DNA of 64,000 nucleotides, from assembly GCF_024700885.2 (NCBI RefSeq), contig NZ_CP117016.1; one strand, written 5' to 3'. Source of the DNA: Escherichia coli. Lineage in GTDB: Bacteria; Pseudomonadota; Gammaproteobacteria; Enterobacterales; Enterobacteriaceae. Shown here in pieces: positions 3,325-26,406 of the stretch. A model generated the notes under the pieces. It made no database searches. It saw only the letters and a program-made list of their open reading frames with translations, and was not told the DNA's origin. Numbering within the stretch: position 1 is the stretch's first letter; each line of letters opens with the position of its first letter. A program made the position numbers and the translations under genes.

Positions 3325-3975
3325 ATGAACAATATGAACGTAATTATTGCCGATGACCATCCGATAGTCTTGTTCGGTATTCGCAAATCACTTGAGCAAA
3401 TTGAGTGGGTGAATGTTGTCGGCGAATTTGAAGACTCTACAGCACTGATCAACAACCTGCCGAAACTGGATGCGCATGTGTTGATTACCGATCTCTCCAT
3501 GCCTGGCGATAAGTACGGCGATGGCATTACCTTAATCAAGTACATCAAGCGCCATTTCCCAAGCCTGTCGATCATTGTTCTGACTATGAACAACAACCCG
3601 GCGATTCTTAGTGCGGTATTGGATCTGGATATCGAAGGGATCGTGCTGAAACAAGGTGCACCGACCGATCTGCCGAAAGCTCTCGCCGCGCTGCAGAAAG
3701 GGAAGAAATTTACCCCGGAAAGCGTTTCTCGCCTGTTGGAAAAAATCAGTGCTGGTGGTTACGGTGACAAGCGTCTCTCGCCAAAAGAGAGTGAAGTTCT
3801 GCGCCTGTTTGCTGAAGGCTTCCTGGTGACCGAGATCGCTAAAAAGCTGAACCGCAGTATCAAAACCATCAGTAGCCAGAAGAAATCTGCGATGATGAAG
3901 CTGGGTGTCGAGAACGATATTGCTCTGCTGAATTATCTCTCTTCTGTGACCTTAAGTCCGGCAGATAAAGACTAA
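3325..3975 (+). CDS. rcsB: Response regulator RcsB, 216 aa
   Basis: Start set to ATG at 3325 (MNNMNVIIADDHPIV...), giving 216 aa; the ORF-track start at 3280 is an upstream extension overlapping the rcsD 3' end. Confidence 0.95.
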   Translation: MNNMNVIIADDHPIVLFGIRKSLEQIEWVNVVGEFEDSTALINNLPKLDAHVLITDLSMPGDKYGDGITLIKYIKRHFPSLSIIVLTMNNNPAILSAVLDLDIEGIVLKQGAPTDLPKALAALQKGKKFTPESVSRLLEKISAGGYGDKRLSPKESEVLRLFAEGFLVTEIAKKLNRSIKTISSQKKSAMMKLGVENDIALLNYLSSVTLSPADKD

Positions 3976-3979
3976 TCAT

Positions 3980-4062
3980 CTGTAGGCCAGATAAGACGCG
4001 TCAGCGTCGCATCTGGCATTTGCACTGAATGCCAGATGCGGCGTAAACGCCTTATCCGTCCT
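3980..4062. repeat. REP (repetitive extragenic palindromic) elements between convergent rcsB and rcsC
   Basis: GCCTGATGCGACGCT / GCCGGATGCGGCGTAAACGCCTTATCCG-type palindromic units; yields the typical spurious MPDATL ORF in the track. Confidence 0.7.
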
Positions 4063-6910
4063 ACGAATCCCGCGATTTCCTGACCCTCTCGGCATATACC
4101 GTTAGCGTCTGTTTTATCACATCCAGCGTTACCGGCTTCGACAGGCAGCTGTCCATACCAGACTCCAGACACCGCTGCTTCTCTTCAGCCAACGCATTAG
4201 CAGTTACTCCGATTACCGGCAACGTCAGTCCCAACTGACGAATGCGTTGCGTCAAGCGGTAACCATCCATATTTGGCATGTTGACGTCGCTAAGCACGAT
4301 ATCAATATGATTCTTGCTAAGTACATTAAGCGCATCGACGCCATCATTCGCGGTTTTACATTGATAGCCCAACGATCCCAACTGATCTGCCAGAAGACGC
4401 CGGTTAATCGGATGATCATCCACAACCAGAATCATCATATCGTCGTTATCGCTGACCGCTTTGTCCGTCGACGGCAGAGCGTTAGCAGGATCATCGCTCT
4501 CCATCTCGATCAAATAAATACGCGCCAACAATGCCGGTAGCTCATGCGGGGCAGCCACACTGTGTACCCACTCCCCTGGCGCTTTCTCCAGCGGAATACC
4601 AATATGGCGACGACAGAAGGTCACTACCGCTCTACCCTGCCATTTTTTGCTCACTACCTCGTCAGTGATTAACACATCTTCGGGAGTCGGTTCCTGCCCT
4701 TCGTATGTTGTAACGACGATGCCGCTGCGCTGCAAACTGGTTTCCAGGAACTGACAGAGCGACGCATTGCGGACCGCCAGCCAGCAGCGTTTACCACTCA
4801 ACCCTTCCACGCCTTTTTTCTGCGGGTACTGAGCGCCGTACAACGGAATACGCACGGTAAACTGGCTGCCCATTCCCGGTTCTGAATCTACCGAGATGTC
4901 GCCGTCCATCATGCTGATCAGTTTTTCACAAATCGCCAGCCCCAGACCGGTCCCCTGGAAGTTACGCTGTACGCCCGTTCCGACCTGGAAGAAGGGATCA
5001 AACAAGCGCACCACTTCTTTCGCCGGAATCCCCACTCCGGTATCGCGAACGCGGATAGAGAGATAATCGCCATCAGCGCGAACATGCAAAACTATACAGC
5101 CGGTATCGGTGAATTTTATGGCGTTACTCAACAGGTTGGAGATGACCTGCTGTAAACGCATCGGGTCGCCATTTAAGGCCACTGGCACATCCGGTTCAAT
5201 AAAGCAGTACAAGCCTAGCTGCTTGCGTACCACCAGCGGTAAATAGTTGGCGGTGATGTGGTTCATCACTTCACGCGGTGAAAACTCACGCGGTTCGATC
5301 TTCAACTGTTCTGATTCAATTTTCGAGAAATCGAGAATATCGCTGATAATTTTCAACAACAGGCTGGAAGAGTTATTCATTGCCGTCACCAGCCGATCGA
5401 CGCCTTTCGGTAACTCTTTGGTTTGCAACAGATCCAGGTTACCGATAATGCCATACAGCGGCGTTCGCAGCTCATGACTGACGGTGGCAAGGAACATCGA
5501 TTTTGACTGGCTCGCCTGTTCCGCTGCTTGTGCCATCTCCTGCAACGACTCTTCCATCTTCACGCGCGAAGAAACATCCACCAGCACACAAATGGCCACG
5601 TTTTCATTACGATAGCGCGAATGGACGAAGCTGATTTGCAGATTGGTATTGTTGCTGGTCAGGACATCAACAAAATTGACCTGCTGCCCACAGATAATTT
5701 GTGTCAGCCGTTGGCGATCCTCATGCGTAAGCATATTGAGATAGGTATGCGCCAGTTCGTTACTTAAAATATTGACGCCATCAGCGGTACGCAAAATGCA
5801 GATACCCACTGGCGCGGAGGCGACAATCTTGCGATTAAACTGCTCATGTTCTTCCAGTCGCAGGGCGTCGCTTTCCGCCGGAATGAAAATACGTCGCTCG
5901 TACATCCGCGCGAGAGTAAACAATGCAGCTCCGGCAAGCACATTCAGCAAAATTGCGTTAAGGATCAACATGCGAATGCGTTCCAGCACCTTATCAACCG
6001 GCACCGAATACACGATGCTTAGCGATGAGGGTGGCAGATTTTTCTTCAGCACCAGCTCCCGGAACCCTTCCGTATAGCCAAACCAGGAGCGTTCCTGCAT
6101 CCAGCGAGGATCGCCCTTAATTTTGCTTTCTGGTCCGGTAAGCGAAATCAGGGTATGACCATTTTCATCAAGAATGGTAACCCCCATCGGCAACGTACCA
6201 GGTAAGAAAAAGTTCTCCATCCGGATGGTCTGCTCGACACCCAAAAGCGCCTGCAACCGGTTCGCCAGATAAACTGGCGTCAACGCGTAAAAATACCCGA
6301 CGCCAGGGCGCGGACCTTCGCTGATCCAGTAGAGGTTACTGCCGCTATCGTCTTGTGGTGCATTTCGATATTTATTGATGCGTTCATGCAAAGCTTTCAA
6401 CGCGGTATCGCGTTCCACTGGCATATCACGCAGACCGAAATTGGCCATGCAAAGGTTATCGCTGCCGATTAAAAATACCCGGTTGAGATCGTAAGCCGCA
6501 GAGAAATTATCGCGCCAGTAGCGCATAAACCACACCAATGACTCCAGAGAGCCTCGCCAGGTGTTACTCATTGCGGAACAATCGGAGTCGGCAAACAGCG
6601 GTTCAAACGCAGGCACATCCGCCTGCGTTTCTCGTCCACGCGGGGAAAGCACACCGTTTTCTGCCGATAAGCGATTTTCAGCTATGTACTTCAGCTCTTT
6701 CATCACATCAGAGGTACGTTGAATAAAGCGCTGAGCCTGATCGGAACTCAGATTAAATTCCTGACGAATTTCCGATTCTCGCTGATGTAACGCATTCACG
6801 ATGTAAAAAACGGATGAAAAAGCAATCAACAGCCAGAGCACTAACGCCAATGCTCGGAACATGTAGCGCGAGGCTTTCAGGGTTGTACGAAAAGAAGCAA
6901 GGTATTTCAA
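4061..6910 (-). CDS. rcsC: Hybrid sensor histidine kinase RcsC, 949 aa
   Basis: 949-aa ORF starting MKYLASFRTTLKASRYMF; start codon on the minus strand is TTG (6910-6908); histidine kinase H-box (SHELRTPL) and C-terminal receiver domain visible. Confidence 0.93.
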   Translation of the reverse strand: MKYLASFRTTLKASRYMFRALALVLWLLIAFSSVFYIVNALHQRESEIRQEFNLSSDQAQRFIQRTSDVMKELKYIAENRLSAENGVLSPRGRETQADVPAFEPLFADSDCSAMSNTWRGSLESLVWFMRYWRDNFSAAYDLNRVFLIGSDNLCMANFGLRDMPVERDTALKALHERINKYRNAPQDDSGSNLYWISEGPRPGVGYFYALTPVYLANRLQALLGVEQTIRMENFFLPGTLPMGVTILDENGHTLISLTGPESKIKGDPRWMQERSWFGYTEGFRELVLKKNLPPSSLSIVYSVPVDKVLERIRMLILNAILLNVLAGAALFTLARMYERRIFIPAESDALRLEEHEQFNRKIVASAPVGICILRTADGVNILSNELAHTYLNMLTHEDRQRLTQIICGQQVNFVDVLTSNNTNLQISFVHSRYRNENVAICVLVDVSSRVKMEESLQEMAQAAEQASQSKSMFLATVSHELRTPLYGIIGNLDLLQTKELPKGVDRLVTAMNNSSSLLLKIISDILDFSKIESEQLKIEPREFSPREVMNHITANYLPLVVRKQLGLYCFIEPDVPVALNGDPMRLQQVISNLLSNAIKFTDTGCIVLHVRADGDYLSIRVRDTGVGIPAKEVVRLFDPFFQVGTGVQRNFQGTGLGLAICEKLISMMDGDISVDSEPGMGSQFTVRIPLYGAQYPQKKGVEGLSGKRCWLAVRNASLCQFLETSLQRSGIVVTTYEGQEPTPEDVLITDEVVSKKWQGRAVVTFCRRHIGIPLEKAPGEWVHSVAAPHELPALLARIYLIEMESDDPANALPSTDKAVSDNDDMMILVVDDHPINRRLLADQLGSLGYQCKTANDGVDALNVLSKNHIDIVLSDVNMPNMDGYRLTQRIRQLGLTLPVIGVTANALAEEKQRCLESGMDSCLSKPVTLDVIKQTLTVYAERVRKSRDS

Positions 6911-7076
6911 AGGGGCGAAGCTCCGCCTCAGGTGACCGATGGAGTGTGGTTAAGGTAGCGGTAAAAGCGTGTTACCGCAATGTTCTCTCTTCTCTGGAAT
7001 ATGATACACCGCCGAGAAATCATCACCTTAACCTCTGATAATCGTCATATACCGGACAAGACTAGTGGATTTCAGC

Positions 7077-8903
7077 ATGCATTATATGAAGTGGATTTAT
7101 CCACGCCGCTTACGCAATCAAATGATCCTGATGGCAATCCTGATGGTCATTGTCCCAACGCTTACTATTGGTTATATCGTAGAAACGGAAGGACGTTCAG
7201 CAGTCTTATCTGAAAAAGAGAAAAAACTTTCTGCCGTGGTCAACCTGCTTAATCAGGCACTAGGCGATCGCTATGATCTCTACATCGACTTACCACGTGA
7301 GGAGCGTATCCGCGCATTAAATGCAGAACTTGCCCCCATTACCGAAAATATCACTCACGCCTTCCCTGGCATCGGCGCTGGTTATTACAACAAAACGCTG
7401 GATGCGATAATCACCTACGCGCCTTCAGCGCTATATCAGAATAATGTCGGCGTTACCATTGCCGCAGATCACCCTGGTCGCGAAGTCATGCGTACAAATA
7501 CCCCTTTGGTTTATTCAGGCAGGCAGGTGCGCGGCGATATTTTGAATTCAATGATCCCCATTGAGCGTAATGGTGAAATCCTCGGCTATATCTGGGCCAA
7601 TGAATTAACCGAAGATATTCGCCGCCAGGCCTGGAAAATGGATGTGAGGATTATCATTGTGCTCACCGCCGGTTTGCTGATAAGCCTGCTGTTGATTGTC
7701 CTTTTCTCCCGTCGCCTGAGCGCCAATATTGATATCATCACCGATGGCCTCTCGACTCTGGCGCAAAATATTCCCACTCGATTACCACAATTGCCCGGTG
7801 AAATGGGGCAAATCAGTCAGAGTGTTAACAACCTCGCCCAGGCACTGCGTGAAACGCGGACACTTAACGATCTGATTATTGAAAACGCTGCCGATGGCGT
7901 CATTGCCATTGACCGCCAGGGTGATGTAACCACCATGAACCCGGCAGCAGAAGTCATCACTGGCTATCAACGTCATGAACTGGTAGGGCAGCCTTACTCC
8001 ATGTTGTTCGACAATACTCAGTTCTACAGTCCAGTACTGGATACGCTGGAACATGGCACCGAACATGTAGCGCTGGAGATCAGTTTTCCAGGCCGTGACC
8101 GCACCATTGAACTCAGTGTCACTACCAGTCGTATTCATAACACGCATGGTGAAATGATAGGTGCTTTGGTGATTTTCTCTGATTTAACTGCCCGCAAAGA
8201 AACCCAGCGCCGCATGGCGCAAGCAGAACGCCTCGCCACACTGGGTGAGCTGATGGCTGGCGTCGCGCATGAAGTACGTAATCCGCTAACGGCTATTCGT
8301 GGTTATGTACAGATCTTGCGCCAACAAACCGGTGACCCAATACATCAGGAATATCTGTCCGTAGTACTCAAAGAAATCGATTCAATTAACAAAGTTATTC
8401 AGCAATTGCTCGAATTTTCACGTCCACGCCACAGTCAATGGCAACAAGTCAGCCTCAATGCATTGGTTGAAGAAACTCTGGTACTGGTACAAACCGCTGG
8501 CGTACAAGCGCGGATCGACTTCATAAGCGAACTGGATAATGAATTAAGCCCGATTAACGCCGATCGTGAACTGCTCAAACAGGTACTACTGAATATCCTG
8601 ATCAATGCCGTCCAGGCTATCAGTGCACGAGGGAAAATTCGCATTCGAACCTGGCAGTACAGCGACTCACAACAGGCCATTTCGATAGAGGACAACGGCT
8701 GTGGCATTGATCTCTCGCTGCAAAAAAAGATCTTCGATCCCTTTTTCACTACCAAAGCCTCAGGAACCGGGCTTGGTCTGGCGTTAAGTCAACGCATCAT
8801 TAATGCCCATCAGGGTGATATTCGCGTCGCCAGTTTGCCGGGCTACGGCGCAACCTTCACGCTTATTTTACCGATCAACCCGCAGGGAAATCAGACTGTA
8901 TGA
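7077..8903 (+). CDS. atoS: Sensor histidine kinase AtoS, 608 aa
   Basis: ATG at 7077 (MHYMKWIYPRRLRNQ...); HAMP/PAS region and H-box (AHEVRNPLTAI); overlaps the atoC start. Confidence 0.9.
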   Translation: MHYMKWIYPRRLRNQMILMAILMVIVPTLTIGYIVETEGRSAVLSEKEKKLSAVVNLLNQALGDRYDLYIDLPREERIRALNAELAPITENITHAFPGIGAGYYNKTLDAIITYAPSALYQNNVGVTIAADHPGREVMRTNTPLVYSGRQVRGDILNSMIPIERNGEILGYIWANELTEDIRRQAWKMDVRIIIVLTAGLLISLLLIVLFSRRLSANIDIITDGLSTLAQNIPTRLPQLPGEMGQISQSVNNLAQALRETRTLNDLIIENAADGVIAIDRQGDVTTMNPAAEVITGYQRHELVGQPYSMLFDNTQFYSPVLDTLEHGTEHVALEISFPGRDRTIELSVTTSRIHNTHGEMIGALVIFSDLTARKETQRRMAQAERLATLGELMAGVAHEVRNPLTAIRGYVQILRQQTGDPIHQEYLSVVLKEIDSINKVIQQLLEFSRPRHSQWQQVSLNALVEETLVLVQTAGVQARIDFISELDNELSPINADRELLKQVLLNILINAVQAISARGKIRIRTWQYSDSQQAISIEDNGCGIDLSLQKKIFDPFFTTKASGTGLGLALSQRIINAHQGDIRVASLPGYGATFTLILPINPQGNQTV

Positions 8904-10285
8904 CTGCTATTAATCGCATCCTTATTGTGGATGATGAAGATAATGTTCGCCGTATGCTGAGCACCGCTTTTGCACTACAAGGATTCGAAACACATTGTGC
9001 GAACAACGGGCGCACAGCATTACACCTGTTTGCCGATATTCACCCTGACGTGGTGTTGATGGATATCCGCATGCCAGAGATGGACGGCATCAAGACACTA
9101 AAGGAGATGCGCAGCCATGAGACACGGACACCCGTTATTCTGATGACGGCCTATGCTGAAGTGGAAACCGCCGTCGAAGCACTACGCTGCGGAGCCTTCG
9201 ACTATGTTATCAAACCGTTTGATCTCGATGAGTTGAATTTAATCGTTCAGCGCGCTTTACAACTCCAGTCAATGAAAAAAGAGATCCGTCATCTGCACCA
9301 GGCACTGAGCACCAGCTGGCAATGGGGGCACATTCTCACCAACAGCCCGGCGATGATGGACATCTGCAAAGACACCGCCAAAATTGCCCTTTCTCAGGCC
9401 AGCGTCTTGATTAGCGGTGAAAGCGGCACCGGGAAAGAGTTGATTGCCAGAGCGATTCACTACAATTCGCGGCGGGCAAAGGGGCCGTTCATTAAAGTCA
9501 ACTGCGCGGCGCTGCCGGAATCGTTGCTCGAAAGTGAACTGTTTGGTCATGAAAAAGGGGCATTTACTGGTGCACAAACCTTGCGTCAGGGATTATTTGA
9601 ACGTGCCAACGAAGGTACTCTGCTCCTCGACGAAATTGGCGAAATGCCGCTGGTACTGCAAGCCAAATTACTACGCATTCTGCAGGAACGGGAATTTGAA
9701 CGGATTGGCGGCCATCAGACCATAAAAGTTGATATCCGCATCATTGCTGCCACCAACCGCGACTTGCAGGCAATGGTGAAAGAAGGCACCTTCCGTGAAG
9801 ATCTCTTTTATCGCCTTAACGTTATTCATTTAATACTGCCGCCTCTGCGCGATCGCCGGGAAGATATTTCCCTGTTAGCTAATCACTTTTTGCAAAAATT
9901 CAGTAGTGAGAATCAGCGCGATATTATCGACATCGATCCGATGGCAATGTCACTGCTTACCGCCTGGTCATGGCCGGGAAATATTCGAGAGCTTTCCAAC
10001 GTTATTGAACGCGCCGTCGTGATGAATTCAGGCCCGATCATTTTTTCTGAGGATCTTCCGCCGCAGATTCGTCAGCCAGTCTGTAATGCTGGCGAGGTAA
10101 AAACATCCCCTGTCGGAGAGCGTAATTTAAAAGAGGAAATTAAACGCGTCGAAAAACGCATCATTATGGAAGTGCTGGAACAACAAGAAGGAAACCGAAC
10201 CCGCACTGCTTTAATGCTGGGCATCAGTCGCCGTGCATTGATGTATAAACTCCAGGAATACGGTATCGATCCGGCGGATGTATAA
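8900..10285 (+). CDS. atoC: Sigma-54-dependent response regulator AtoC, 461 aa
   Basis: Receiver domain, AAA+ sigma-54 activator core (GESGTGKE, GAFTGA motif) and C-terminal HTH; ATG at 8900 overlaps the atoS stop. Confidence 0.92.
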   Translation: MTAINRILIVDDEDNVRRMLSTAFALQGFETHCANNGRTALHLFADIHPDVVLMDIRMPEMDGIKTLKEMRSHETRTPVILMTAYAEVETAVEALRCGAFDYVIKPFDLDELNLIVQRALQLQSMKKEIRHLHQALSTSWQWGHILTNSPAMMDICKDTAKIALSQASVLISGESGTGKELIARAIHYNSRRAKGPFIKVNCAALPESLLESELFGHEKGAFTGAQTLRQGLFERANEGTLLLDEIGEMPLVLQAKLLRILQEREFERIGGHQTIKVDIRIIAATNRDLQAMVKEGTFREDLFYRLNVIHLILPPLRDRREDISLLANHFLQKFSSENQRDIIDIDPMAMSLLTAWSWPGNIRELSNVIERAVVMNSGPIIFSEDLPPQIRQPVCNAGEVKTSPVGERNLKEEIKRVEKRIIMEVLEQQEGNRTRTALMLGISRRALMYKLQEYGIDPADV

Positions 10286-10296
10286 CGCCAAAACTT

Positions 10297-10337
10297 GCTA
10301 TGCAGAAATTTGCACAGTGCGCAATTTTCTGCATAGC
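10297..10337 (+). promoter_or_regulatory. AtoC upstream activating site: 20-bp inverted repeat pair
   Basis: GCTATGCAGAAATTTGCACA-GTGCGCAATTTTCTGCATAGC is a near-perfect palindrome about 100 bp upstream of the sigma-54 promoter. Confidence 0.6.
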
Positions 10338-10419
10338 CGCTCATTCTCCTTATAAATCCCCATCCAATTTATCCCTTCATATTCAATTAGTTAAATAACA
10401 ACATTCAATAATCTCATTC

Positions 10420-10435
10420 TGGCACTCCCCTTGCT
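10420..10435 (+). promoter_or_regulatory. Sigma-54 (-24/-12) promoter of atoDAEB
   Basis: TGGCAC-N5-TTGCT with GG-to-GC spacing matching the RpoN consensus, 45 bp upstream of the atoD ATG. Confidence 0.6.
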
Positions 10436-10480
10436 ATTCCCTGACTGTACCCACAACGGTGTATGCAAGAGGGATAAAAA

Positions 10481-11143
10481 ATGAAAACAAAATTGATGAC
10501 ATTACAAGACGCCACCGGCTTCTTTCGTGACGGCATGACCATCATGGTGGGCGGATTTATGGGGATTGGCACTCCATCCCGCCTGGTTGAAGCATTACTG
10601 GAATCTGGTGTTCGCGACCTGACATTGATAGCCAATGATACCGCGTTTGTTGATACTGGCATCGGTCCGCTCATCGTCAATGGTCGAGTCCGCAAAGTGA
10701 TTGCTTCACATATCGGCACCAACCCGGAAACAGGTCGGCGCATGATATCTGGTGAGATGGACGTCGTTCTGGTGCCGCAAGGTACGCTAATCGAGCAAAT
10801 TCGCTGTGGTGGAGCTGGACTTGGTGGTTTTCTCACCCCAACGGGTGTCGGCACCGTCGTAGAGGAAGGCAAACAGACACTGACACTCGACGGTAAAACC
10901 TGGCTGCTCGAACGCCCACTGCGCGCCGACCTGGCGCTAATTCGCGCTCATCGTTGCGACACACTTGGCAACCTGACCTATCACCTTAGCGCCCGCAACT
11001 TTAACCCCCTGATAGCCCTTGCGGCTGATATCACGCTGGTAGAGCCAGATGAACTGGTCGAAACCGGCGAGCTGCAACCTGACCATATTGTCACCCCTGG
11101 TGCCGTTATCGACCACATCATCGTTTCACAGGAGAGCAAATAA
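10481..11143 (+). CDS. atoD: Acetate/acetoacetate CoA-transferase alpha subunit AtoD, 220 aa
   Basis: 220-aa [29 protein letters not shown]; operon context. Confidence 0.9.
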
Positions 11144-11793
11144 TGGATGCGAAACAACGTATTGCGCGCCGTGTGGCGCAAGAGCTTCGTGATGGTGACA
11201 TCGTTAACTTAGGGATCGGTTTACCCACAATGGTCGCCAATTATTTACCGGAGGGTATTCATATCACTCTGCAATCGGAAAACGGCTTCCTCGGTTTAGG
11301 CCCGGTCACGACAGCGCATCCAGATCTGGTGAACGCTGGCGGGCAACCGTGCGGTGTTTTACCCGGTGCAGCCATGTTTGATAGCGCCATGTCATTTGCG
11401 CTAATCCGCGGCGGTCATATTGATGCCTGCGTGCTCGGCGGTTTGCAAGTAGACGAAGAAGCAAACCTCGCGAACTGGGTAGTGCCTGGGAAAATGGTGC
11501 CCGGTATGGGTGGCGCGATGGATCTGGTGACCGGGTCGCGCAAAGTGATCATCGCCATGGAACATTGTGCCAAAGATGGTTCAGCAAAAATTTTGCGCCG
11601 CTGCACCATGCCACTCACTGCGCAACATGCGGTGCATATGCTGGTTACTGAACTGGCTGTCTTTCGTTTTATTGACGGCAAAATGTGGCTCACCGAAATT
11701 GCCGACGGGTGTGATTTAGCCACCGTGCGTGCCAAAACCGAAGCTCGGTTTGAAGTCGCCGCCGATCTGAATACGCAACGGGGTGATTTATGA
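11143..11793 (+). CDS. atoA: Acetate/acetoacetate CoA-transferase beta subunit AtoA, 216 aa
   Basis: 216-aa [31 protein letters not shown]; start overlaps the atoD stop. Confidence 0.9.
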   Translation: MDAKQRIARRVAQELRDGDIVNLGIGLPTMVANYLPEGIHITLQSENGFLGLGPVTTAHPDLVNAGGQPCGVLPGAAMFDSAMSFALIRGGHIDACVLGGLQVDEEANLANWVVPGKMVPGMGGAMDLVTGSRKVIIAMEHCAKDGSAKILRRCTMPLTAQHAVHMLVTELAVFRFIDGKMWLTEIADGCDLATVRAKTEARFEVAADLNTQRGDL

Positions 11794-13112: not shown

Positions 13113-13142
13113 CGGCAACCCTACAGACAGAAGGAATAAAAA

Positions 13143-14327: not shown

Positions 14328-14406
14328 CAAATCAGAACCACTCGCATGGCGGGTGGTTATCTGTTTCAGCCACGATGCGCCAGAAACAGACTAAAGTCAG
14401 AAAAGT

Positions 14407-14431
14407 AAAGGGCCGAATTTTCGGCCCTTTT
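14407..14431. terminator. Bidirectional rho-independent terminator shared by convergent atoB and gyrA
   Basis: Perfect palindrome AAAGGGCCGAA-TT-TTCGGCCCTTT flanked by an A-run on one side and a T-run on the other; 8 bp from the gyrA stop. Confidence 0.7.
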
Positions 14432-14438
14432 AACTTGA

Positions 14439-17075: not shown

Positions 17076-17221
17076 CTAACCGCTATCCCTCTACTGTATC
17101 CCGGATTCAAAGGTCGCAAATTATAACACAGCCGCGCAGTTTGAGGTAAACCTATACGCTTTATTCACATCCAATGCCTGATATACTCGTTTGTCTTGCC
17201 AATTACGGAGTAGAAGTGCCA

Positions 17222-17944
17222 ATGAATGCCGAAAAATCGCCGGTAAACCATAACGTAGACCACGAAGAGATCGCTAAATTTGAAGCTGTCGCCTCCCGCT
17301 GGTGGGATCTTGAAGGTGAGTTCAAACCGCTGCACCGCATTAACCCGCTGCGTCTGGGCTATATTGCCGAGCGTGCTGGCGGTTTATTTGGCAAAAAGGT
17401 GCTCGATGTCGGTTGTGGCGGCGGCATTCTGGCCGAGAGTATGGCGCGCGAAGGCGCGACGGTGACCGGTCTGGATATGGGCTTTGAGCCATTGCAGGTG
17501 GCAAAGCTGCACGCGCTGGAAAGCGGCATTCAGGTGGATTACGTGCAGGAAACCGTGGAAGAGCACGCGGCAAAACATGCCGGGCAGTATGATGTGGTGA
17601 CCTGCATGGAGATGCTGGAGCACGTGCCCGATCCGCAGTCAGTGGTAAGAGCCTGTGCGCAACTGGTGAAACCGGGCGGCGATGTCTTTTTCTCGACGCT
17701 TAACCGTAACGGCAAGTCGTGGCTGATGGCGGTGGTTGGCGCGGAATATATTTTGCGCATGGTGCCCAAAGGTACGCATGATGTGAAGAAGTTTATTAAA
17801 CCGGCAGAACTGCTTGGCTGGGTAGATCAGACAAGCCTTAAAGAGCGACATATAACCGGGTTACATTACAACCCGATCACTAATACTTTTAAACTCGGCC
17901 CCGGCGTCGATGTGAACTATATGCTGCACACGCAGAATAAGTGA
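17222..17944 (+). CDS. ubiG: Ubiquinone biosynthesis O-methyltransferase UbiG, 240 aa
   Basis: Start set to ATG at 17222 ([16 protein letters not shown]...); SAM-binding motif VLDVGCGGG; the ORF-track start at 17174 is an extension. Confidence 0.93.
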
Positions 17945-17959
17945 GGTTGTTGTTTGGAT

Positions 17960-18066
17960 TCATCCGGCAACCGCGCCAATGCCTGATGCGACGCTTGCCG
18001 CGCCTTATCAGGCCTACAAATGCTCCCGTAGGCCAGATAAGGCGTTTACGCCGCATCCGGCAATAG
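17960..18066. repeat. REP elements (BIME-like cluster) between ubiG and yfaL
   Basis: GCCTGATGCGACGCTTGCCGCGCCTTATCAGGCCTAC and GCCGGATGCGGCGTAAACGCCTTATCTGGCCTAC units; source of the spurious MPDATLAAPYQ ORF. Confidence 0.7.
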
Positions 18067-18083
18067 TGCCGGTCAGACAGCGA

Positions 18084-21000
18084 TTACCATTTCACCGTCA
18101 TCGACAAAAACCCTGCCGTCTGGGCAAAATCATCACTCCCTTTCTGCCACGCCACGCTACCACGCAGGGACACTCGCTGACTGATATTGCCCGTGACTCC
18201 CACTTTTAATTCACCCCGTTGCTTCACCGCATCGTCACTGATAGTGCTGCCATCTTCTTCAATTTCCGTCGCATGCGGATCGTGATAATAATTCAGATCT
18301 AATGTTGGTATGACATGAACAGCGGTACGCCATTCGCTGTGTAAACCCAGCCGCGTTTGAATATCATCACCCTGCGATTGTGACACGCGCGCATGGTTAG
18401 CGGCGGTAAAATCATCCTGCTGCACGCCCTGATAAATCACCTGCGCCTGCGGTTCAATCACCACACCACGCCCCGGTAACCACTGATACCCGGCTTCCAG
18501 CGAGGCGATAATCCCCGATGAGTGGTAATGATCCACGCCATCTTCATGTTCGGAAACATCATTGTTAAACCACGCGTATTGCAGCCAGCTATCCAGCCAG
18601 GCCCCCTGCTTCTGATTACCGTGCTGAAACCAGCTTGAGGTCAGACCAACGGCATAACCGTGGTTCTGGTTATCGGCGCGAGTTCCGGTCATATTCGAGC
18701 GGCTGTCGCCCTGGTTATCACTGTAGCCACCAACCGCCCCAAGCATCCACTCGCCATCCGTGCCCCAGCACCCGCTAAACAAGTCGCCGCTAAGCTGCAC
18801 CGTAGAAGTGTCTTCATGCTGAGCCAGTTGCCCCGCTGCTGTGTAATGATAATCTCCGCCGATAACACGTAAATTCAGCGTCTGACCATCGCCACCAGCG
18901 TGATCGTGTCGCTCCATCACAAACGCCTGATTTGCCGCCCGCAGGTTATTAAAATATCCACCAACTTTGGCATTCAACACCGGCTGGTAGGCAGGCGTAG
19001 GGTCCGGGGCCGGGTCGGGTGTTGGATCAGGATCCGGCGTGGGATCAGGATCGGGAGTCGGGTCTGGATCAGGTGGCGATGGTGGCGTTACTTCTTGCGA
19101 TCGCAGATACCAGTCGTTGTTATCTTCCACCAGCGTGTAGTCATATGCTCCCATATTGACGTAGCCGCTGCCTGCCAGACTGAATTGCGCATTGTTTTGA
19201 AACTGCGTTGGATCGGCTGCGAAATCAACCACTTTAATGCCTGTCGATGTCGGCTCACCAATCCCTGTAATGGAGTTAACCATCACAGTTGTGTTGCCAG
19301 CAGTATTACCGTTCATCACCAATTGATCGCTTACCGAGTCATCGCCGTTTAATTCGCTATCGAGCAGTAGCGTACCACCGCCGGTATAATCACCGTTTAC
19401 CGTCAGCGTGTCGCCAGCGACGCCATTTTGCAGGCTGACCGCACCGGACGTATTGGTCAGATTGCCATTAACTGTTACGTCGGAAAGATAAGTCAGGCTG
19501 TCAGTTTCAAGGTTGGTATTAAGCTCGCCTGTCAACGTCACGCCATCGGTGGCATTCACCAGCGTCCCATCGCCGTTAAACAGTGAGGCATTAAGGGCGA
19601 TGGAAGTATCCTGCCCGGTCAGGCGCAAAACCGTACCATCGCTGATGTCGATAGTGCCGCTGGAAGTAACATCAATTGACTGAATATCCTGATCCGCGCC
19701 AGTCTTGAACGTTGCCCCGTCACCGACCCACAGCGACGAAGCATAAGGGAAGATATCCGCTACATCGCCTTGCAGCGTGCCTTCTTCGACACGTACCGCC
19801 GACTGCGTCGTACCACTGGCGGTCATTTCCAGCGTACCCGCTCCCGTTTTAGTCAATGTGCTACCCTCATCCAGATGCTGCCCGCTGCTGTCAGCCATCA
19901 GTGCGCCCCACTGCGTGTCTACCCCCGCATCAACCGCCACTTCACCGTCGGCGCGCATTTCAATATCACGCCCGTGACCTGCTGCCTCTGAACGAGTATC
20001 AACGTCAGCGGTAATTTCCATCTCACTTTGTTGTTGGCTATCAGTAAAGATGAGCTGACGGTTTTCGTCGGTATTGCCAAGCTGCGAGTTGTCGCTCACC
20101 ACCAGCGTACCGGAAGCGATTTGCGTGGTGCCCAGGTAACTATTATTGTTTGCCAGGCTAACCAGCCCGTCGCCCGCATCGATCACCACGTAGACGCCAT
20201 CTTTCTCGTCGCCGCCGATATGCAAATTGTCGCCACCTGCGAGATCCACCACATCCTGACTGCCGATAACCGTACCGCCGCTGCCGCTGACTGCAAGGCC
20301 ATCGTTGTATGATGTGCCGCTCTGCCAGGTGGCGAAATCAGAGAGATCAAGCACGCCGCCGTTTAACACGATCGACTGCGGATCGTCCTGGAGAGCGGCA
20401 AGATCTGCCGCGTCGCCTTCCAGCGTAAGCACCGCGCCATCATCAACGACTATATCGCCAGTTAGCGCCATCGACTGAGCCCCTGCCAGCACGTAGCTGC
20501 CGTTTTGCGCAATGGTGAGCTGACCAGCACCTTCGATGGTGCCAGCAAAACTGCCCTGATTAACAGTAACGTTGCCACCAGCATCGATATTTAAAGTGCC
20601 ATTCTGAAAGCCCGTCAATGCGTGCACAAAAGTTTGTTGGGTCGAGCCAACGTTTAGCTCAGCCTGATTCTGATACTGATCAAGACTCCCTATCGTCAGA
20701 CCGTAGCAGTCTTGCGGATCGTCCTGGCAATGAGTATCTCCGACATTCATCAGGGAGTTGCTGCGACCCAGGGTAACCTCACCGTTTTCTATCTGCATCT
20801 CGCCAGTAAAGTCATTGTTATCTGCATTAAGTACCAGATCGCCGGAACCTGTTTTGGTGATTACCCCGGTACCAGCAATAGAGTCAACAACTCCGTCATT
20901 CTCTGTATTGCCGATAACCAGCGTTTTTCCGTCGGCAATATCAAAGGTAACTTCACTTAAGCCGAGATACATAAAGCCGCCCGCCTCAGTGGAAGGACCA

Positions 21001-21842
21001 TCCCCATAACCTGCTGCGCTGTTGTTCTCATCCACTAACACGCCGTTGTTCTGGCTGTAGCTGTCATCAACTGAAATATCAATAAGATAGGGAGCCGTCA
21101 CGCTATTGGTATAAATCGCCCCACCATATCCCTCAGCAGAGTTATTTGTAAATGCGGTGTTATTTATTATTGTGAAACCTGACGGATGCGTGATATTGCT
21201 ATTATTATCGGTGACATCGATTGCCCCTCCATCGCCATCACTGTAACTTGTTGATGTATATGCCTGGTTGTTATCAAAAATAACTTCACTTAAATAGACG
21301 TCATTGTTGATGGTATAAATTGCACCACCTTTGCCGTCATTAGCGATGTTATTGCGAAACACGGCGTTAGTGACACTTAAATCGACGACACCGGTATCGT
21401 TAGTACCAGAAGAATAGATTGCGCCACCATAGCCACCTGCAACGTTACCGGAAAAAATAACATTAGTAAGATTCAGCGTTGAGTTTTCTTTAGCAAATAT
21501 TGCCCCGCCGTTATTATATTCTCCTGAGACAGTATTATTGGCAAACAGAGTCATTCCAGTTTCATTTTCTGGCGATAGAGAAAACTCCGCTCCTTGTTGC
21601 AAAAATACGGCCCCACCGCTGGCGTTATTGGTCATATCCGAAAAAACCAGCCATTGCCCATCGGCGATGCTCCAGTCCTGCGTAATGCCTGAAAGGCTTT
21701 GCCTGCTGGCGTGACAACTCGCTTTGATATCATATCCCTGACATGAATCAATGGCCGCCGCGACACCGTTAGCAGAGAAAAGAGATGCAATCATTGACGG
21801 GAGTAAAGATAAATACTCCTTGCGTAGAAAAATAATCCGCAT
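18084..21842 (-). CDS. yfaL: AIDA-I-type autotransporter adhesin YfaL, 1252 aa
   Basis: 1252-aa ORF MRIIFLRKEYLSLLPSMIASLFSA (signal peptide); repetitive passenger domain; proline-rich PDPDPT linker; C-terminal beta-barrel ending ...SMTVKW. Confidence 0.9.
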   Translation of the reverse strand: MRIIFLRKEYLSLLPSMIASLFSANGVAAAIDSCQGYDIKASCHASRQSLSGITQDWSIADGQWLVFSDMTNNASGGAVFLQQGAEFSLSPENETGMTLFANNTVSGEYNNGGAIFAKENSTLNLTNVIFSGNVAGGYGGAIYSSGTNDTGVVDLSVTNAVFRNNIANDGKGGAIYTINNDVYLSEVIFDNNQAYTSTSYSDGDGGAIDVTDNNSNITHPSGFTIINNTAFTNNSAEGYGGAIYTNSVTAPYLIDISVDDSYSQNNGVLVDENNSAAGYGDGPSTEAGGFMYLGLSEVTFDIADGKTLVIGNTENDGVVDSIAGTGVITKTGSGDLVLNADNNDFTGEMQIENGEVTLGRSNSLMNVGDTHCQDDPQDCYGLTIGSLDQYQNQAELNVGSTQQTFVHALTGFQNGTLNIDAGGNVTVNQGSFAGTIEGAGQLTIAQNGSYVLAGAQSMALTGDIVVDDGAVLTLEGDAADLAALQDDPQSIVLNGGVLDLSDFATWQSGTSYNDGLAVSGSGGTVIGSQDVVDLAGGDNLHIGGDEKDGVYVVIDAGDGLVSLANNNSYLGTTQIASGTLVVSDNSQLGNTDENRQLIFTDSQQQSEMEITADVDTRSEAAGHGRDIEMRADGEVAVDAGVDTQWGALMADSSGQHLDEGSTLTKTGAGTLEMTASGTTQSAVRVEEGTLQGDVADIFPYASSLWVGDGATFKTGADQDIQSIDVTSSGTIDISDGTVLRLTGQDTSIALNASLFNGDGTLVNATDGVTLTGELNTNLETDSLTYLSDVTVNGNLTNTSGAVSLQNGVAGDTLTVNGDYTGGGTLLLDSELNGDDSVSDQLVMNGNTAGNTTVMVNSITGIGEPTSTGIKVVDFAADPTQFQNNAQFSLAGSGYVNMGAYDYTLVEDNNDWYLRSQEVTPPSPPDPDPTPDPDPTPDPDPTPDPAPDPTPAYQPVLNAKVGGYFNNLRAANQAFVMERHDHAGGDGQTLNLRVIGGDYHYTAAGQLAQHEDTSTVQLSGDLFSGCWGTDGEWMLGAVGGYSDNQGDSRSNMTGTRADNQNHGYAVGLTSSWFQHGNQKQGAWLDSWLQYAWFNNDVSEHEDGVDHYHSSGIIASLEAGYQWLPGRGVVIEPQAQVIYQGVQQDDFTAANHARVSQSQGDDIQTRLGLHSEWRTAVHVIPTLDLNYYHDPHATEIEEDGSTISDDAVKQRGELKVGVTGNISQRVSLRGSVAWQKGSDDFAQTAGFLSMTVKW
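19005..19100. repeat. Tandem short repeats encoding the proline-rich (PDPDPT)n linker inside yfaL
   Basis: Protein segment PPSPPDPDPTPDPDPTPDPDPTPDPAPDPTP; the DNA shows near-identical GGATC(A/C)GGA-type units. Confidence 0.6.
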
Positions 21843-22413
21843 ATTAATCTGACCATCATTTTCTATAAGACGGCATATTTAATCGCATTATACGATATGG
21901 GTTATTTTTCTTTTGTAAATTGTTCAACCCGGTGCAATGGCTATTTTGTTATTATTTCATGAATAATATCAGTGCGTCATAATTCAAGTTAATCACCTTA
22001 AGGGATATCAGTTATGTTTAAACTGAATTAAAGTAATGAATAATTTTCTTATAATATAAGGTAAATTAACAAAATGGCTTCGCATTTAACAACAACCGAA
22101 GAGAAAACAACCATTTCGACATCAACAATCGCTTACATTCGCTTATATATTGACCATAACTGATACATCAGATTATGTGATGACTCGTGCTTAGATCAAT
22201 TTTTGCAATCATTAGCCAAAAGATTAATAAACCATCTATATCAATTTATCTAACCTATTCTTCCGTTCAAGAAATCGCCGAACAGTTATTTTTAACAAAT
22301 TTTTCTCTTCCCATTGACTTTCCCGGACACCTTGTCTGACCTAAGGTGCGCGAAAGCCACTTTTTCCTTCCTGAGTTATCCACAAAGTTATGCACTTGCA
22401 AGAGGGCCATTTT

Positions 22414-22460
22414 CACACTATCTTGCAGTGAATCCCAAACATACCCCCTATATATAGTGT
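22414..22460 (+). promoter_or_regulatory. Putative NrdR boxes in the nrdAB promoter region
   Basis: CACACTATCTTGCAGTG and CCCTATATATAGTGT, two partially palindromic boxes about three helical turns apart, about 80-120 bp upstream of the nrdA ATG. Confidence 0.45.
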
Positions 22461-22537
22461 TCTAAGCAGCTTCCCTCACTACAGGTAGTCTGCATGAAAC
22501 TATTGCGGAAAGAATTCCAAAAACAGGTACGACATAC

Positions 22538-24823
22538 ATGAATCAGAATCTGCTGGTGACAAAGCGCGACGGTAGCACAGAGCGCATCAATCTCGACAAA
22601 ATCCATCGCGTTCTGGATTGGGCGGCAGAAGGACTGCATAACGTTTCGATTTCCCAGGTCGAACTGCGCTCCCACATTCAGTTTTATGACGGTATCAAGA
22701 CCTCTGACATCCACGAAACCATTATCAAGGCTGCCGCAGACCTGATCTCCCGTGATGCGCCGGATTATCAGTATCTCGCCGCGCGCCTGGCGATCTTCCA
22801 CCTGCGTAAAAAAGCCTACGGCCAGTTTGAGCCGCCTGCGCTGTACGACCACGTGGTGAAAATGATCGAGATGGGCAAATACGATAATCATCTGCTGGAA
22901 GACTACACGGAAGAAGAGTTCAAGCAGATGGACACGTTTATCGATCACGACCGTGATATGACCTTTTCTTATGCTGCGGTTAAGCAGCTGGAAGGCAAAT
23001 ATCTGGTGCAGAACCGTGTGACCGGCGAAATCTACGAAAGCGCCCAGTTCCTTTATATTCTGGTTGCCGCGTGCCTGTTCTCGAACTACCCGCGTGAAAC
23101 GCGCCTGCAATACGTGAAGCGTTTTTACGACGCGGTTTCCACATTTAAAATTTCGCTGCCGACGCCAATCATGTCCGGCGTGCGTACCCCGACTCGTCAG
23201 TTCAGCTCCTGCGTACTGATCGAGTGCGGTGACAGCCTGGATTCCATTAACGCCACCTCCAGCGCGATTGTTAAATACGTTTCCCAGCGTGCCGGGATCG
23301 GCATCAATGCCGGGCGTATTCGTGCGCTGGGTAGCCCGATTCGCGGTGGCGAAGCGTTCCATACCGGTTGTATTCCGTTCTATAAGCATTTCCAGACAGC
23401 GGTGAAATCCTGCTCTCAGGGCGGTGTGCGTGGCGGTGCGGCTACGCTGTTCTACCCGATGTGGCATCTGGAAGTTGAAAGCCTGCTGGTGTTGAAAAAC
23501 AACCGTGGGGTGGAAGGCAACCGCGTGCGTCATATGGACTACGGGGTACAAATCAACAAACTGATGTATACCCGTCTGCTGAAAGGTGAAGATATCACCC
23601 TGTTCAGCCCGTCCGACGTACCGGGGCTGTACGACGCGTTCTTCGCCGATCAGGAAGAGTTTGAACGCCTGTACACCAAATATGAGAAAGACGACAGCAT
23701 CCGCAAGCAGCGTGTGAAAGCCGTTGAGCTGTTCTCGCTGATGATGCAGGAACGTGCGTCTACCGGTCGTATCTATATTCAGAACGTTGACCACTGCAAT
23801 ACCCATAGCCCGTTTGATCCGGCCATCGCGCCAGTGCGCCAGTCTAACCTGTGCCTGGAAATCGCCCTGCCGACCAAACCGCTGAATGATGTCAACGACG
23901 AGAACGGTGAAATAGCGCTGTGTACGTTGTCTGCTTTCAACCTGGGCGCAATTAATAGCCTGGATGAACTGGAAGAGCTGGCGATTCTGGCGGTACGCGC
24001 ACTCGACGCGCTGCTGGACTATCAGGATTACCCGATCCCGGCCGCCAAACGTGGAGCGATGGGTCGTCGTACGCTGGGTATTGGTGTGATCAACTTCGCT
24101 TACTACCTGGCGAAGCACGGTAAACGCTACTCCGACGGCAGCGCCAACAACCTGACGCATAAAACCTTCGAAGCTATTCAGTATTACCTGCTGAAAGCCT
24201 CTAATGAGCTGGCGAAAGAGCAAGGCGCGTGCCCGTGGTTTAACGAAACCACTTACGCGAAAGGGATCCTGCCGATCGATACCTATAAGAAAGATCTGGA
24301 TGCCATCGCTAATGAGCCGCTGCATTACGACTGGGAAGCACTGCGTGAGTCAATCAAAACGCACGGCCTGCGTAACTCCACGCTTTCTGCTCTGATGCCG
24401 TCCGAGACCTCTTCGCAGATCTCTAACGCCACTAACGGTATTGAACCGCCGCGTGGTTACGTCAGCATCAAAGCGTCGAAAGACGGTATTCTGCGCCAGG
24501 TGGTGCCGGACTACGAGCATCTGCACGACGCCTATGAACTGCTGTGGGAAATGCCGGGTAACGATGGCTACCTGCAACTGGTGGGTATCATGCAGAAATT
24601 TATCGATCAGTCGATCTCTGCTAACACCAACTACGATCCGTCACGCTTCCCGTCAGGAAAAGTGCCGATGCAGCAACTGCTGAAAGACCTGCTCACCGCC
24701 TACAAATTCGGGGTCAAAACGCTGTATTATCAGAACACCCGTGACGGTGCTGAAGACGCACAAGACGATCTGGTACCGTCAATCCAGGACGATGGCTGCG
24801 AAAGCGGCGCATGTAAGATCTGA
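22538..24823 (+). CDS. nrdA: Ribonucleoside-diphosphate reductase 1 alpha subunit NrdA, 761 aa
   Basis: 761-aa ORF MNQNLLVTKRDGSTERINLDKIHRVLDWAAEG...; ATG at 22538. Confidence 0.97.
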   Translation: MNQNLLVTKRDGSTERINLDKIHRVLDWAAEGLHNVSISQVELRSHIQFYDGIKTSDIHETIIKAAADLISRDAPDYQYLAARLAIFHLRKKAYGQFEPPALYDHVVKMIEMGKYDNHLLEDYTEEEFKQMDTFIDHDRDMTFSYAAVKQLEGKYLVQNRVTGEIYESAQFLYILVAACLFSNYPRETRLQYVKRFYDAVSTFKISLPTPIMSGVRTPTRQFSSCVLIECGDSLDSINATSSAIVKYVSQRAGIGINAGRIRALGSPIRGGEAFHTGCIPFYKHFQTAVKSCSQGGVRGGAATLFYPMWHLEVESLLVLKNNRGVEGNRVRHMDYGVQINKLMYTRLLKGEDITLFSPSDVPGLYDAFFADQEEFERLYTKYEKDDSIRKQRVKAVELFSLMMQERASTGRIYIQNVDHCNTHSPFDPAIAPVRQSNLCLEIALPTKPLNDVNDENGEIALCTLSAFNLGAINSLDELEELAILAVRALDALLDYQDYPIPAAKRGAMGRRTLGIGVINFAYYLAKHGKRYSDGSANNLTHKTFEAIQYYLLKASNELAKEQGACPWFNETTYAKGILPIDTYKKDLDAIANEPLHYDWEALRESIKTHGLRNSTLSALMPSETSSQISNATNGIEPPRGYVSIKASKDGILRQVVPDYEHLHDAYELLWEMPGNDGYLQLVGIMQKFIDQSISANTNYDPSRFPSGKVPMQQLLKDLLTAYKFGVKTLYYQNTRDGAEDAQDDLVPSIQDDGCESGACKI

Positions 24824-24825
24824 TA

Positions 24826-24960
24826 TTGAGATGCCGGATGCGGCGTGAACGCCTTATCCGGCATACGGCTCGGTTTGTAGGCCTGATATGACGCGCCAGC
24901 GTCGCATCAGGCACAGGATGCGGCGTAAAATGCCTTATCCGGCATTAAACTCCCAACAGG
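24826..24960. repeat. REP/BIME cluster between nrdA and nrdB
   Basis: Several GCCGGATGCGGCGTGAACGCCTTATCCGGC-type units in alternating orientation; produces the spurious [15 protein letters not shown]. Confidence 0.7.
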
Positions 24961-24968
24961 ACACATTC

Positions 24969-26099
24969 ATGGCATATACCACCTTTTCACAGACGAAAAA
25001 TGATCAGCTCAAAGAACCGATGTTCTTTGGTCAGCCGGTCAACGTGGCTCGCTACGATCAGCAAAAATATGACATCTTCGAAAAGCTGATCGAAAAGCAG
25101 CTCTCTTTCTTCTGGCGTCCGGAAGAAGTTGACGTTTCTCGTGACCGTATCGATTACCAGGCACTGCCTGAACACGAAAAACACATCTTTATCAGCAACC
25201 TGAAATATCAGACGTTGCTGGACTCCATTCAGGGTCGCAGCCCGAACGTGGCACTGCTGCCGCTGATCTCGATCCCTGAACTGGAAACCTGGGTCGAAAC
25301 CTGGGCGTTCTCAGAAACCATTCACTCTCGTTCTTATACCCATATCATTCGTAATATCGTTAACGATCCGTCCGTTGTGTTTGATGATATCGTCACCAAC
25401 GAGCAGATCCAGAAACGTGCGGAAGGGATCTCCAGCTATTACGATGAGCTGATCGAAATGACCAGCTACTGGCATCTGCTGGGCGAAGGTACCCACACCG
25501 TTAACGGTAAAACCGTAACCGTTAGCCTGCGCGAGCTGAAGAAAAAACTGTATCTCTGCCTGATGAGCGTTAACGCGCTGGAAGCGATCCGCTTCTACGT
25601 CAGCTTTGCTTGTTCCTTTGCCTTTGCAGAACGCGAACTGATGGAAGGTAACGCCAAAATTATTCGCCTGATTGCCCGCGATGAAGCCCTGCACCTGACC
25701 GGTACTCAGCATATGCTGAATCTGCTGCGCAGCGGCGCGGATGATCCGGAGATGGCGGAAATTGCCGAAGAATGTAAGCAGGAATGCTATGACCTGTTTG
25801 TCCAGGCGGCACAGCAAGAGAAAGACTGGGCGGATTATCTGTTCCGTGACGGTTCGATGATTGGTCTGAATAAAGACATTCTCTGCCAGTACGTTGAATA
25901 CATCACCAATATCCGCATGCAGGCAGTCGGTTTGGATCTGCCGTTCCAGACTCGCTCCAACCCGATCCCGTGGATCAATACCTGGCTGGTGTCTGATAAC
26001 GTGCAGGTTGCTCCGCAGGAAGTGGAAGTCAGTTCTTATCTGGTCGGGCAGATTGACTCGGAAGTGGACACCGACGATTTGAGTAACTTCCAGCTCTGA
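24969..26099 (+). CDS. nrdB: Ribonucleoside-diphosphate reductase 1 beta subunit NrdB, 376 aa
   Basis: Start set to ATG at 24969 ([22 protein letters not shown]...); the ORF-track start at 24888 lies inside the REP cluster. Confidence 0.96.
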
Positions 26100-26353
26100 T
26101 GGCTCGCATTACCCTGCGCATCACTGGCACACAACTGCTGTGCCAGGATGAACACCCTTCCCTTCTGGCGGCGCTGGAATCCCACAATGTGGCGGTTGAG
26201 TACCAGTGCCGCGAAGGTTACTGCGGTTCCTGTCGCACGCGCCTTGTTGCAGGCCAGGTGGACTGGATTGCCGAACCGTTAGCCTTTATTCAGCCGGGGG
26301 AAATTTTGCCTTGTTGTTGCCGGGCAAAAGGCGATATTGAAATCGAGTTGTGA
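26099..26353 (+). CDS. yfaE: 2Fe-2S ferredoxin YfaE (NrdB radical maintenance), 84 aa
   Basis: 84-aa ORF with the cysteine pattern C..C..C...C; ATG overlaps the nrdB stop. Confidence 0.9.
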   Translation: MARITLRITGTQLLCQDEHPSLLAALESHNVAVEYQCREGYCGSCRTRLVAGQVDWIAEPLAFIQPGEILPCCCRAKGDIEIEL

Positions 26354-26368
26354 TCGGGTACTAGCGCC

Positions 26369-26402
26369 AGATACGACGCTTACGCGTATTATCTGGCCTA
26401 CA
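26369..26402. repeat. Degenerate REP-like palindrome between yfaE and inaA
   Basis: GCCAGATACGACGCTTACGCGTATTATCTGGCCTAC has 8-bp terminal inverted repeats and resembles REP. Confidence 0.4.
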
Positions 26403-26406
26403 ACGA

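Follow-up and report, generated by a model that had tools for sequence, protein, structure and literature searches.

Our scans identify four sites between rcsB and inaA in a stretch of Escherichia coli DNA as ordinary members of the E. coli repetitive extragenic palindromic (REP; also palindromic unit, PU) family, arranged as bacterial interspersed mosaic elements of type 2 (BIME-2), a reading that we hold with a probability of about 95%. The stretch, called the window throughout, comprises all 64,000 nucleotides that were analyzed (contig NZ_CP117016.1) and is part of the E. coli chromosome, with the gene order rcsDBC-ato-gyrA-ubiG-yfaL-nrdAB-yfaE-inaA. Three of the sites occupy junctions between convergent genes (rcsB/rcsC, ubiG/yfaL, and yfaE/inaA), and one occupies a spacer inside an operon (nrdA-nrdB). 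We find eight REP units at these sites, listed here with the sequences that accompany them (scores are from the consensus alignment described below).

3982-4017, minus strand: Z2 REP, score 30, 6 nt past the rcsB stop codon (3973-3975) and inside the match to the naRNA4 model.
4018-4029: head-to-head linker ATTTGCACTGAA between the two rcsB/rcsC REPs, within the full-length naRNA4 match.
4030-4064, plus strand: Y REP of rcsB/rcsC, score 31.
17961-17971: REP-head-like fragment CATCCGGCAAC, within a 12-bp segment that K-12 lacks.
17981-18017, plus strand: Z2 REP matching the consensus, 36 nt past the ubiG stop codon.
18028-18062, minus strand: Y REP, score 33, tail-to-tail with the preceding Z2, the yfaL stop codon being 21 nt away.
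24832-24866, plus strand: Y REP, score 31, 8 nt past the nrdA stop codon (24821-24823), with the tail ATAC in place of CTAC.
24877-24912, minus strand: Z2 REP, score 34.
24916-24943 (feature span 24913-24950), plus strand: degenerate Y-like REP, the third unit of nrdA-nrdB, score 23, with six mismatches and no CTAC tail.
26366-26401, plus strand: degenerate Z2-like REP, score 24, found by the regular expression with four mismatches and by the naRNA4 model with 28.9 bits.

The whole 64 kb was scanned in three independent ways. A two-arm regular expression (GCCKGATGCGRCG ... CGYCTTATCMGGCCTAC, a few mismatches tolerated) returned seven matches, all within the four sites, and none in 50 second-order Markov shuffles; when it was relaxed, matches outside the sites appeared only with 8–9 mismatches, which equals the shuffle background. 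Aligning the window locally with each of the three published consensuses for REPs (Y, TGCCGGATGCGGCGTAAACGCCTTATCCGGCCTAC; Z1, GCCTGATGCGCTACGCTTATCAGGCCTACG; Z2, GCCTGATGCGACGCTGGCGCGTCTTATCAGGCCTACG; PMC11208160) gave the eight units with scores of 23–34, compared with a best score of 17 in ten 64-kb shuffles. At the reporting cut-off of 18 no further unit was found anywhere else in the 64 kb, and no unit in the window was best matched by Z1. Rfam holds no REP family as such; naRNA4 (RF02564) is its only model of a REP pair and consists of Y, linker, and Z2. It matches 3985-4061 on the minus strand end to end with 73.8 bits (gathering score 59.5) and gives sub-threshold matches at nrdA-nrdB (51.6 and 42.8 bits), ubiG-yfaL (43.2 and 38.5 bits), and yfaE-inaA (28.9 bits, as listed).

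A preliminary description of this DNA had placed REP units after rcsB, after ubiG, between nrdA and nrdB, and in degenerate form after yfaE. The formal consensus scan that it proposed and the Rfam search agree on all four junctions, its coordinates are right to a few bases, and a single degenerate Z2-like unit indeed follows yfaE. It had also called such units normal for E. coli, and this holds: eight units in 64 kb fit the density of K-12, in which 584 REPs have been counted (PMC3333891), and the sequences resemble REPs elsewhere in the same genome. Queries that include the REPs find dispersed copies at a median of 5 (rcsB-rcsC), 11 (ubiG-yfaL), and 21 (nrdA-nrdB) places per genome over 5,426 complete E. 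coli genomes.

The architecture of the sites points in the same direction. The CTAC/GTAG foot tetranucleotide is kept in six of the eight units, the exceptions being ATAC at 24863-24866 and the degenerate third unit of nrdA-nrdB, which has none. Y and Z2 units alternate in orientation (Y plus, Z2 minus, Y plus at nrdA-nrdB; single Y/Z2 pairs at rcsB/rcsC and ubiG/yfaL) and are joined by linkers of 10–13 nt. All eight lie between annotated genes, with a sole overlap of 4 nt between a Y tail and the rcsC stop codon: the CTAC tail (4061-4064) of the rcsB/rcsC Y unit supplies the rcsC TAG stop (complement of 4061-4063), as it also does in K-12. The intergenic RNAs of all sites are predicted to fold more stably than shuffled sequences (z = −3.5 to −9.3), with −52 kcal/mol and z = −9.3 for rcsB-rcsC. 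Where units are paired, the prediction is a single long composite hairpin; for the lone yfaE-inaA unit it is a stem with an internal 2 × 2 mismatch. BIME-1 is ruled out, because the window has no Z1 unit and no L linker. Both the definition of BIME-2 and the variation of BIME number from strain to strain have been published (PMC3333891).

Gene positions were taken from the annotation of a genome that is 100% identical to the window, made with the Prokaryotic Genome Annotation Pipeline (PGAP; locus coordinate = window + 1). Over window 3000-27500, the chromosome of E. coli MLI114 agrees with the window at 100% identity, and 5,425 of the 5,426 complete genomes contain at least a partial match. 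The genes that flank the four sites are the following.

3325-3975, plus strand: rcsB.
4061-6910, minus strand: rcsC.
17222-17944, plus strand: ubiG.
18084-21842, minus strand: yfaL.
22538-24823, plus strand: nrdA.
24969-26099, plus strand: nrdB.
26099-26353, plus strand: yfaE, with its stop codon 12 nt upstream of the yfaE-inaA REP unit.
26407-27057, minus strand: inaA, with its stop codon 5 nt downstream of the same unit.

Upstream of these genes, the small RNA gene MicF is found at 231-324 on the plus strand (116.8 bits in Rfam); the K-12 annotation places micF between ompC and rcsD.

To compare copy number between strains, as the preliminary description had suggested, we used evenly spaced samples of 39–59 genomes; the counts given below for REP-free spacers and for IS621 are exact over all 5,426. 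At three of the four sites, strains differ by the gain or loss of whole REP units. The spacers of the window and of K-12 MG1655 compare as follows.

rcsB-rcsC: 85 bp with two REPs in the window, 199 bp with four REPs in K-12.
ubiG-yfaL: 139 bp with two REPs in the window, 127 bp with two REPs in K-12.
nrdA-nrdB: 145 bp with three REPs in the window, 233 bp with five REPs in K-12.
yfaE-inaA: 53 bp with one REP in both.

The differences from K-12 at rcsB-rcsC (114 bp) and nrdA-nrdB (88 bp) are insertions or deletions of whole units, bordered by directly repeated REP sequence. At rcsB-rcsC the short allele was found in 11 and the long allele in 48 of 59 sampled genomes. Query spans at ubiG-yfaL were 539/540 bp in 12, 527 bp in 22, and 460 bp in 5 of 39 genomes, the last class having a 60-bp spacer with one variant REP. 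The yfaE-inaA span is nearly constant (453 bp in 38 of 39 genomes, 452 bp in one). The nrdA-nrdB spacer exists in at least five alleles, with query spans of 488 (18 genomes), 543–546 (10), 589 (3), 626 (4), ∼633 (23), and 641 bp (1); among the examples fetched, O157 carries five REPs, and a B2-type allele carries Y/Z1 pairs.

In the 488-bp class, which accounts for 1,684 of the 5,426 genomes (31%), the spacer measures 88 bp and is free of REPs. In strain RIVM_C037794 (L003:201-288, corresponding to window 24824-24968) this spacer holds a GC-rich hairpin, CCCTCTCCC-CTTGC-GGGAGAGGG, followed by TTAGGGTGAGGGG. The hairpin starts ∼28 nt from the nrdA stop codon and is a separate dispersed repeat, present at a median of 15 places per genome; we take it to resemble the repeat known as box C.

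The two extra REPs of the K-12 rcsB-rcsC spacer (L001:4829-5027) are joined through an AT-rich, 31-nt tail-to-tail linker, GATTCCCATTATTTCAACAAATTACATTAAA. This linker occurs in K-12 and not in the window, and its sequence appears to come close to the consensus of integration host factor (IHF). A larger difference from K-12 concerns the atoB-gyrA spacer (window 14328-14438), which is without the ∼9.3-kb yfaP-yfaQ-yfaS-yfaT-yfaA cluster of K-12 (L001:15295-24793). We considered a REP-mediated origin for this 9.3-kb yfaP-yfaA difference and rejected it, as there is no REP at either border in either strain.

A second kind of rearrangement is seen in the REP next to ubiG. Among the ten best matches to the region compared, five exceed the window in length by 1,280 bp. 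In one of them, elppa4, the extra DNA (L008:14946-16364) lies between ubiG and yfaL and is annotated as “IS110-like element IS621 family transposase.” The insertion point is the CT of the Z2 CTAC tail (window 18014-18015), CT is found on both flanks, and the ends of the element read ...ACAGTAT and TGTAT.... Searching the 5,426 genomes with a query specific for this junction gives 34 carriers (elppa4 and 33 others), several of which show no other difference from the window (100% identity) across the 24.5 kb compared. REPs are known targets of IS621, whose natural target sequence is ATCAGGCCTAC, position 4 being tolerant (PMC11208160). With this tolerance the target 11-mer matches the window five times, compared with 0.06 expected.

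18007-18017, plus strand: exact natural target ATCAGGCCTAC inside the ubiG-side Z2, CT core at 18014-18015.
24877-24887, minus strand: second exact natural target, in the nrdA-nrdB Z2.
3982-3992, minus strand: IS621-like target ATCTGGCCTAC, the tail of the rcsB-side Z2, with the tolerated mismatch at position 4.
18028-18038, minus strand: the same position-4 variant.
26391-26401, plus strand: the same position-4 variant.

The window itself has no IS621 end sequence, and all of its target sites are empty. The suggestion that these REPs could mediate local rearrangements is thus borne out, both by the gain and loss of units at three sites and by the IS621 insertions in the ubiG-side REP of 34 genomes. 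REP gain and loss at three junctions and the two exact IS621 targets mark plastic spots of this region.

Work in K-12 suggests what these units may do. As RNA, the REP hairpins would block 3′-to-5′ exonucleases and so stabilize the upstream message; for this protection against 3′ exonucleases PMC12306157 lists Newbury et al. 1987 and Higgins et al. 1988. A hairpin within 15 nt of a stop codon may in addition stall the terminating ribosome and lower the output of that gene; as PMC12306157 summarizes Liang, Rudd & Deutscher 2015, ribosomes stall and translation drops when a REP is fewer than 16 nt away from a stop codon, the nrdAB transcript being the published model. The distances from stop codon to REP are inside the 15-nt limit for rcsB (6 nt), nrdA (8 nt), yfaE (12 nt), inaA (5 nt), and rcsC (0 nt, overlap) and beyond it for ubiG (36 nt) and yfaL (21 nt). 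As DNA, the BIME-2 Y units would serve as sites of gyrase binding and cleavage: gyrase cleaves BIME-2, chiefly in Y units (PMC6379681). For the K-12 nrdA-nrdB BIME-2, the Topo-seq supplement of PMC6379681 lists 2 cleavage sites under Cfx, 3 under RifCfx, 0 under microcin, and 3 under oxolinic acid, and refers to two cuts reported by Espeli & Boccard 1997; in the part of this supplement examined, no BIME entry for rcsB-rcsC was found. None of these gene names appears in the RepRanger supplements. Finally, REPs may act as substrates for TnpA-REP, and they are targets for IS621. TnpA-REP binds, cleaves, and recombines REPs and needs the GTAG tetranucleotide and a stem mismatch (PMC3333891). RNAs that combine Y and Z2 can also take part with HU in condensing the nucleoid (PMC4550694).

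Four points weigh against the view of all four sites as typical and functional BIME-2 members. The yfaE-inaA unit is degenerate (four mismatches, 28.9 bits) and has no other copy in the genome detectable by megablast. The two units without CTAC may not function as substrates of TnpA-REP or IS621. An 81-bp and a 35-bp BIME-2 entry, which we matched to K-12 ubiG-yfaL and yfaE-inaA by coordinate offset, have no gyrase cleavage sites in the PMC6379681 supplement. The functional roles, moreover, are all carried over from experiments in K-12. No evidence contradicts the REP identity of the sites.

The palindromes could also be read as hairpins whose main role is to terminate or attenuate transcription, both for the convergent genes and inside nrdAB. 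Apart from the REPs, the four intergenic regions have no stable hairpin, and no intrinsic terminator, be it at the REPs or elsewhere, is predicted inside these regions. Some BIMEs reportedly attenuate transcription, a finding ascribed to Espeli and co-workers in 2001. However, none of the hairpins has a run of T past the stem, nrdB and yfaE lie downstream of the nrdA-nrdB BIME in the same operon, so that efficient termination is impossible there, and that spacer is REP-free in 31% of genomes. We therefore regard a role mainly in termination as improbable.

Still less probable, in our view, is that the rcsB/rcsC site encodes a naRNA4-like nucleoid-associated RNA, which would condense DNA together with HU. 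Its full-length match exceeds the gathering score of RF02564 (73.8 versus 59.5 bits), and published work shows that most REPs are transcribed and that HU-dependent condensation depends on the two-hairpin structure of Y and Z2 and not on the exact sequence (PMC4550694). But the model is in effect one of a Y and Z2 REP pair, on which any BIME-2 unit scores well, and it has matches at all four sites. The characterized naRNA4 comes from REP325, located after yjdM and upstream of yjdN/phnB (PMC4550694). No promoter is predicted near the rcsB/rcsC site, and its inverted REPs are predicted to pair as one long hairpin, not as two. The naRNA4 match at rcsB/rcsC follows from the model being a REP pair and does not speak for an RNA gene of its own.

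That the four sites are REPs also accounts for several small open reading frames (ORFs). Read from its head, a Z2 unit gives xTG CCT GAT GCG ACG CTx, which encodes (M/V)PDATL, and other REP frames yield PDKAFTPH and CRMRR/LIRPT peptides. The ORFs at the four sites are these, the first four being mechanical calls.

3972-4172, minus strand: 66-aa ORF with a GTG start and an internal ATG at 4019 that gives MPDATLTRLIWPTDD, antisense to the rcsC 3′ end.
17979-18209, plus strand: 76-aa ORF with an ATG start, beginning MPDATL, which crosses both REPs and then runs antisense into yfaL.
24714-24914, minus strand: 66-aa ORF with a GTG start and the first codons (V)PDATL, antisense to the nrdA 3′ end.
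26337-26498, plus strand: 53-aa ORF with a TTG start, reading APDTTL across the REP, with no Met or start codon there.
24935-24970, minus strand: homologue of yoaM, 11 codons, overlapping the nrdB start codon.

The preliminary description had every site produce a spurious MPDATL-type ORF. Three sites do encode [M/V]PDATL, the Met at rcsB/rcsC being the internal ATG of the 66-aa ORF, 15 codons from its stop; the yfaE-inaA site reads APDTTL and provides no start codon. The mechanical nrdB ORF has 27 extra upstream codons that run through the BIME. The MPDATL-type ORFs are Z2 read in one frame and thus REP artefacts rather than genes, because PGAP calls none of the REP ORFs in the 100% identical genome, none of six REP ORFs has a Pfam match at E ≤ 1, the exact sequences of four of them are absent from ∼15 billion predicted proteins, and their length is not conserved. 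The ubiG/yfaL ORF has 76 aa in the window and 17 aa in K-12, and the nrdA/nrdB ORF has 66 and 31 aa, respectively, differences that stem from small indels and an additional REP unit; a 1-nt indel in the linker shortens the K-12 version at ubiG/yfaL. The explanation of these small ORFs by REPs therefore stands.

Calling all of the small ORFs spurious goes too far: it is right for the MPDATL types, but yoaM, which overlaps a REP, has published evidence of translation. The K-12 annotation includes an 11-codon yoaM on the minus strand over the nrdB start, and a K-12 yoaM-lacZ fusion is more active than its out-of-frame control (bioRxiv 10.1101/511675). In the window the degenerate Y REP supplies the final codons and stop (GCC GGA TAA) of the yoaM homologue. 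That a REP-overlapping ORF is translated in K-12 and conserved in the window, and that the ubiG/yfaL ORF has a clean ATG start and 76 codons, could be taken to mean that the MPDATL-type ORFs are genuine small-protein genes which overlap the repeats. Such a view is largely refuted by the variable ORF lengths, by the lack of a PGAP call, a Pfam family, and an exact match in the collection, and by a peptide motif that is merely the Z2 consensus in one frame. Chance GC-rich inverted repeats unrelated to REPs, for which only the degeneracy of the yfaE-inaA unit and of the third nrdA-nrdB unit could speak, are already refuted by the absence of regular-expression matches in 50 shuffles, the shuffle maximum of 17 against 23–34 observed, and five occurrences of the 11-mer ATCNGGCCTAC where 0.06 are expected.

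We conclude that the identification of the four sites as REPs is correct, useful for cleaning up small ORFs, and ordinary. Everything of substance has been published before: REPs, BIME-2, gyrase cleavage at nrdA-nrdB, REP control of nrdA, and the targeting of REPs by IS621. For annotation, REP-derived small ORFs (including RIRH-type ones) and the false upstream extension of nrdB should not be called as genes. The least ordinary point is the allele series at nrdA-nrdB with its REP-free 31%, which, if the K-12 mechanism generalizes, would make NrdA output strain-dependent. Should the stalling described in K-12 hold, the nrdA-nrdB alleles would set differing NrdA:NrdB ratios and gyrase loading in an essential operon. 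We tentatively suggest, at clearly less than even odds, that the series of REP alleles at the nrdA stop codon may be no neutral junk but a natural dial of expression that is driven by repeats. Strain-dependent NrdA output is a modest, testable idea and not a discovery.

Comparison with known systems places the sites among the Y and Z2 types of the E. coli REP/PU family organized as BIME-2. The window shares their consensus, the imperfect palindrome of 34–37 nt, and the CTAC/GTAG foot, and with BIME-2 in general it shares alternating orientation, short linkers, intergenic position, and strain-variable copy number. BIME-1 (Y and Z1 with a long L linker and an IHF site; RIP/RIB) is likewise an inverted REP pair, but the window lacks Z1 and the L linker. 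K-12 has four units past rcsB and five between nrdA and nrdB, whereas the window has two and three and otherwise differs by point changes; the window also has the extra 12-bp segment with the REP-head-like fragment at the ubiG site, and two of its units are without the CTAC tail. With naRNA4 of REP325 the rcsB/rcsC site shares Y, a 13-nt linker, and Z2, aligned end to end with the 77-nt model, for which the other three sites are below threshold; REP325 is an array of six tandem units at another locus, whereas rcsB/rcsC is a single unit. In IS621, a bridge-RNA recombinase of the IS110 family, the natural targets correspond to two exact and three tolerated copies in the window, each with the CT core.

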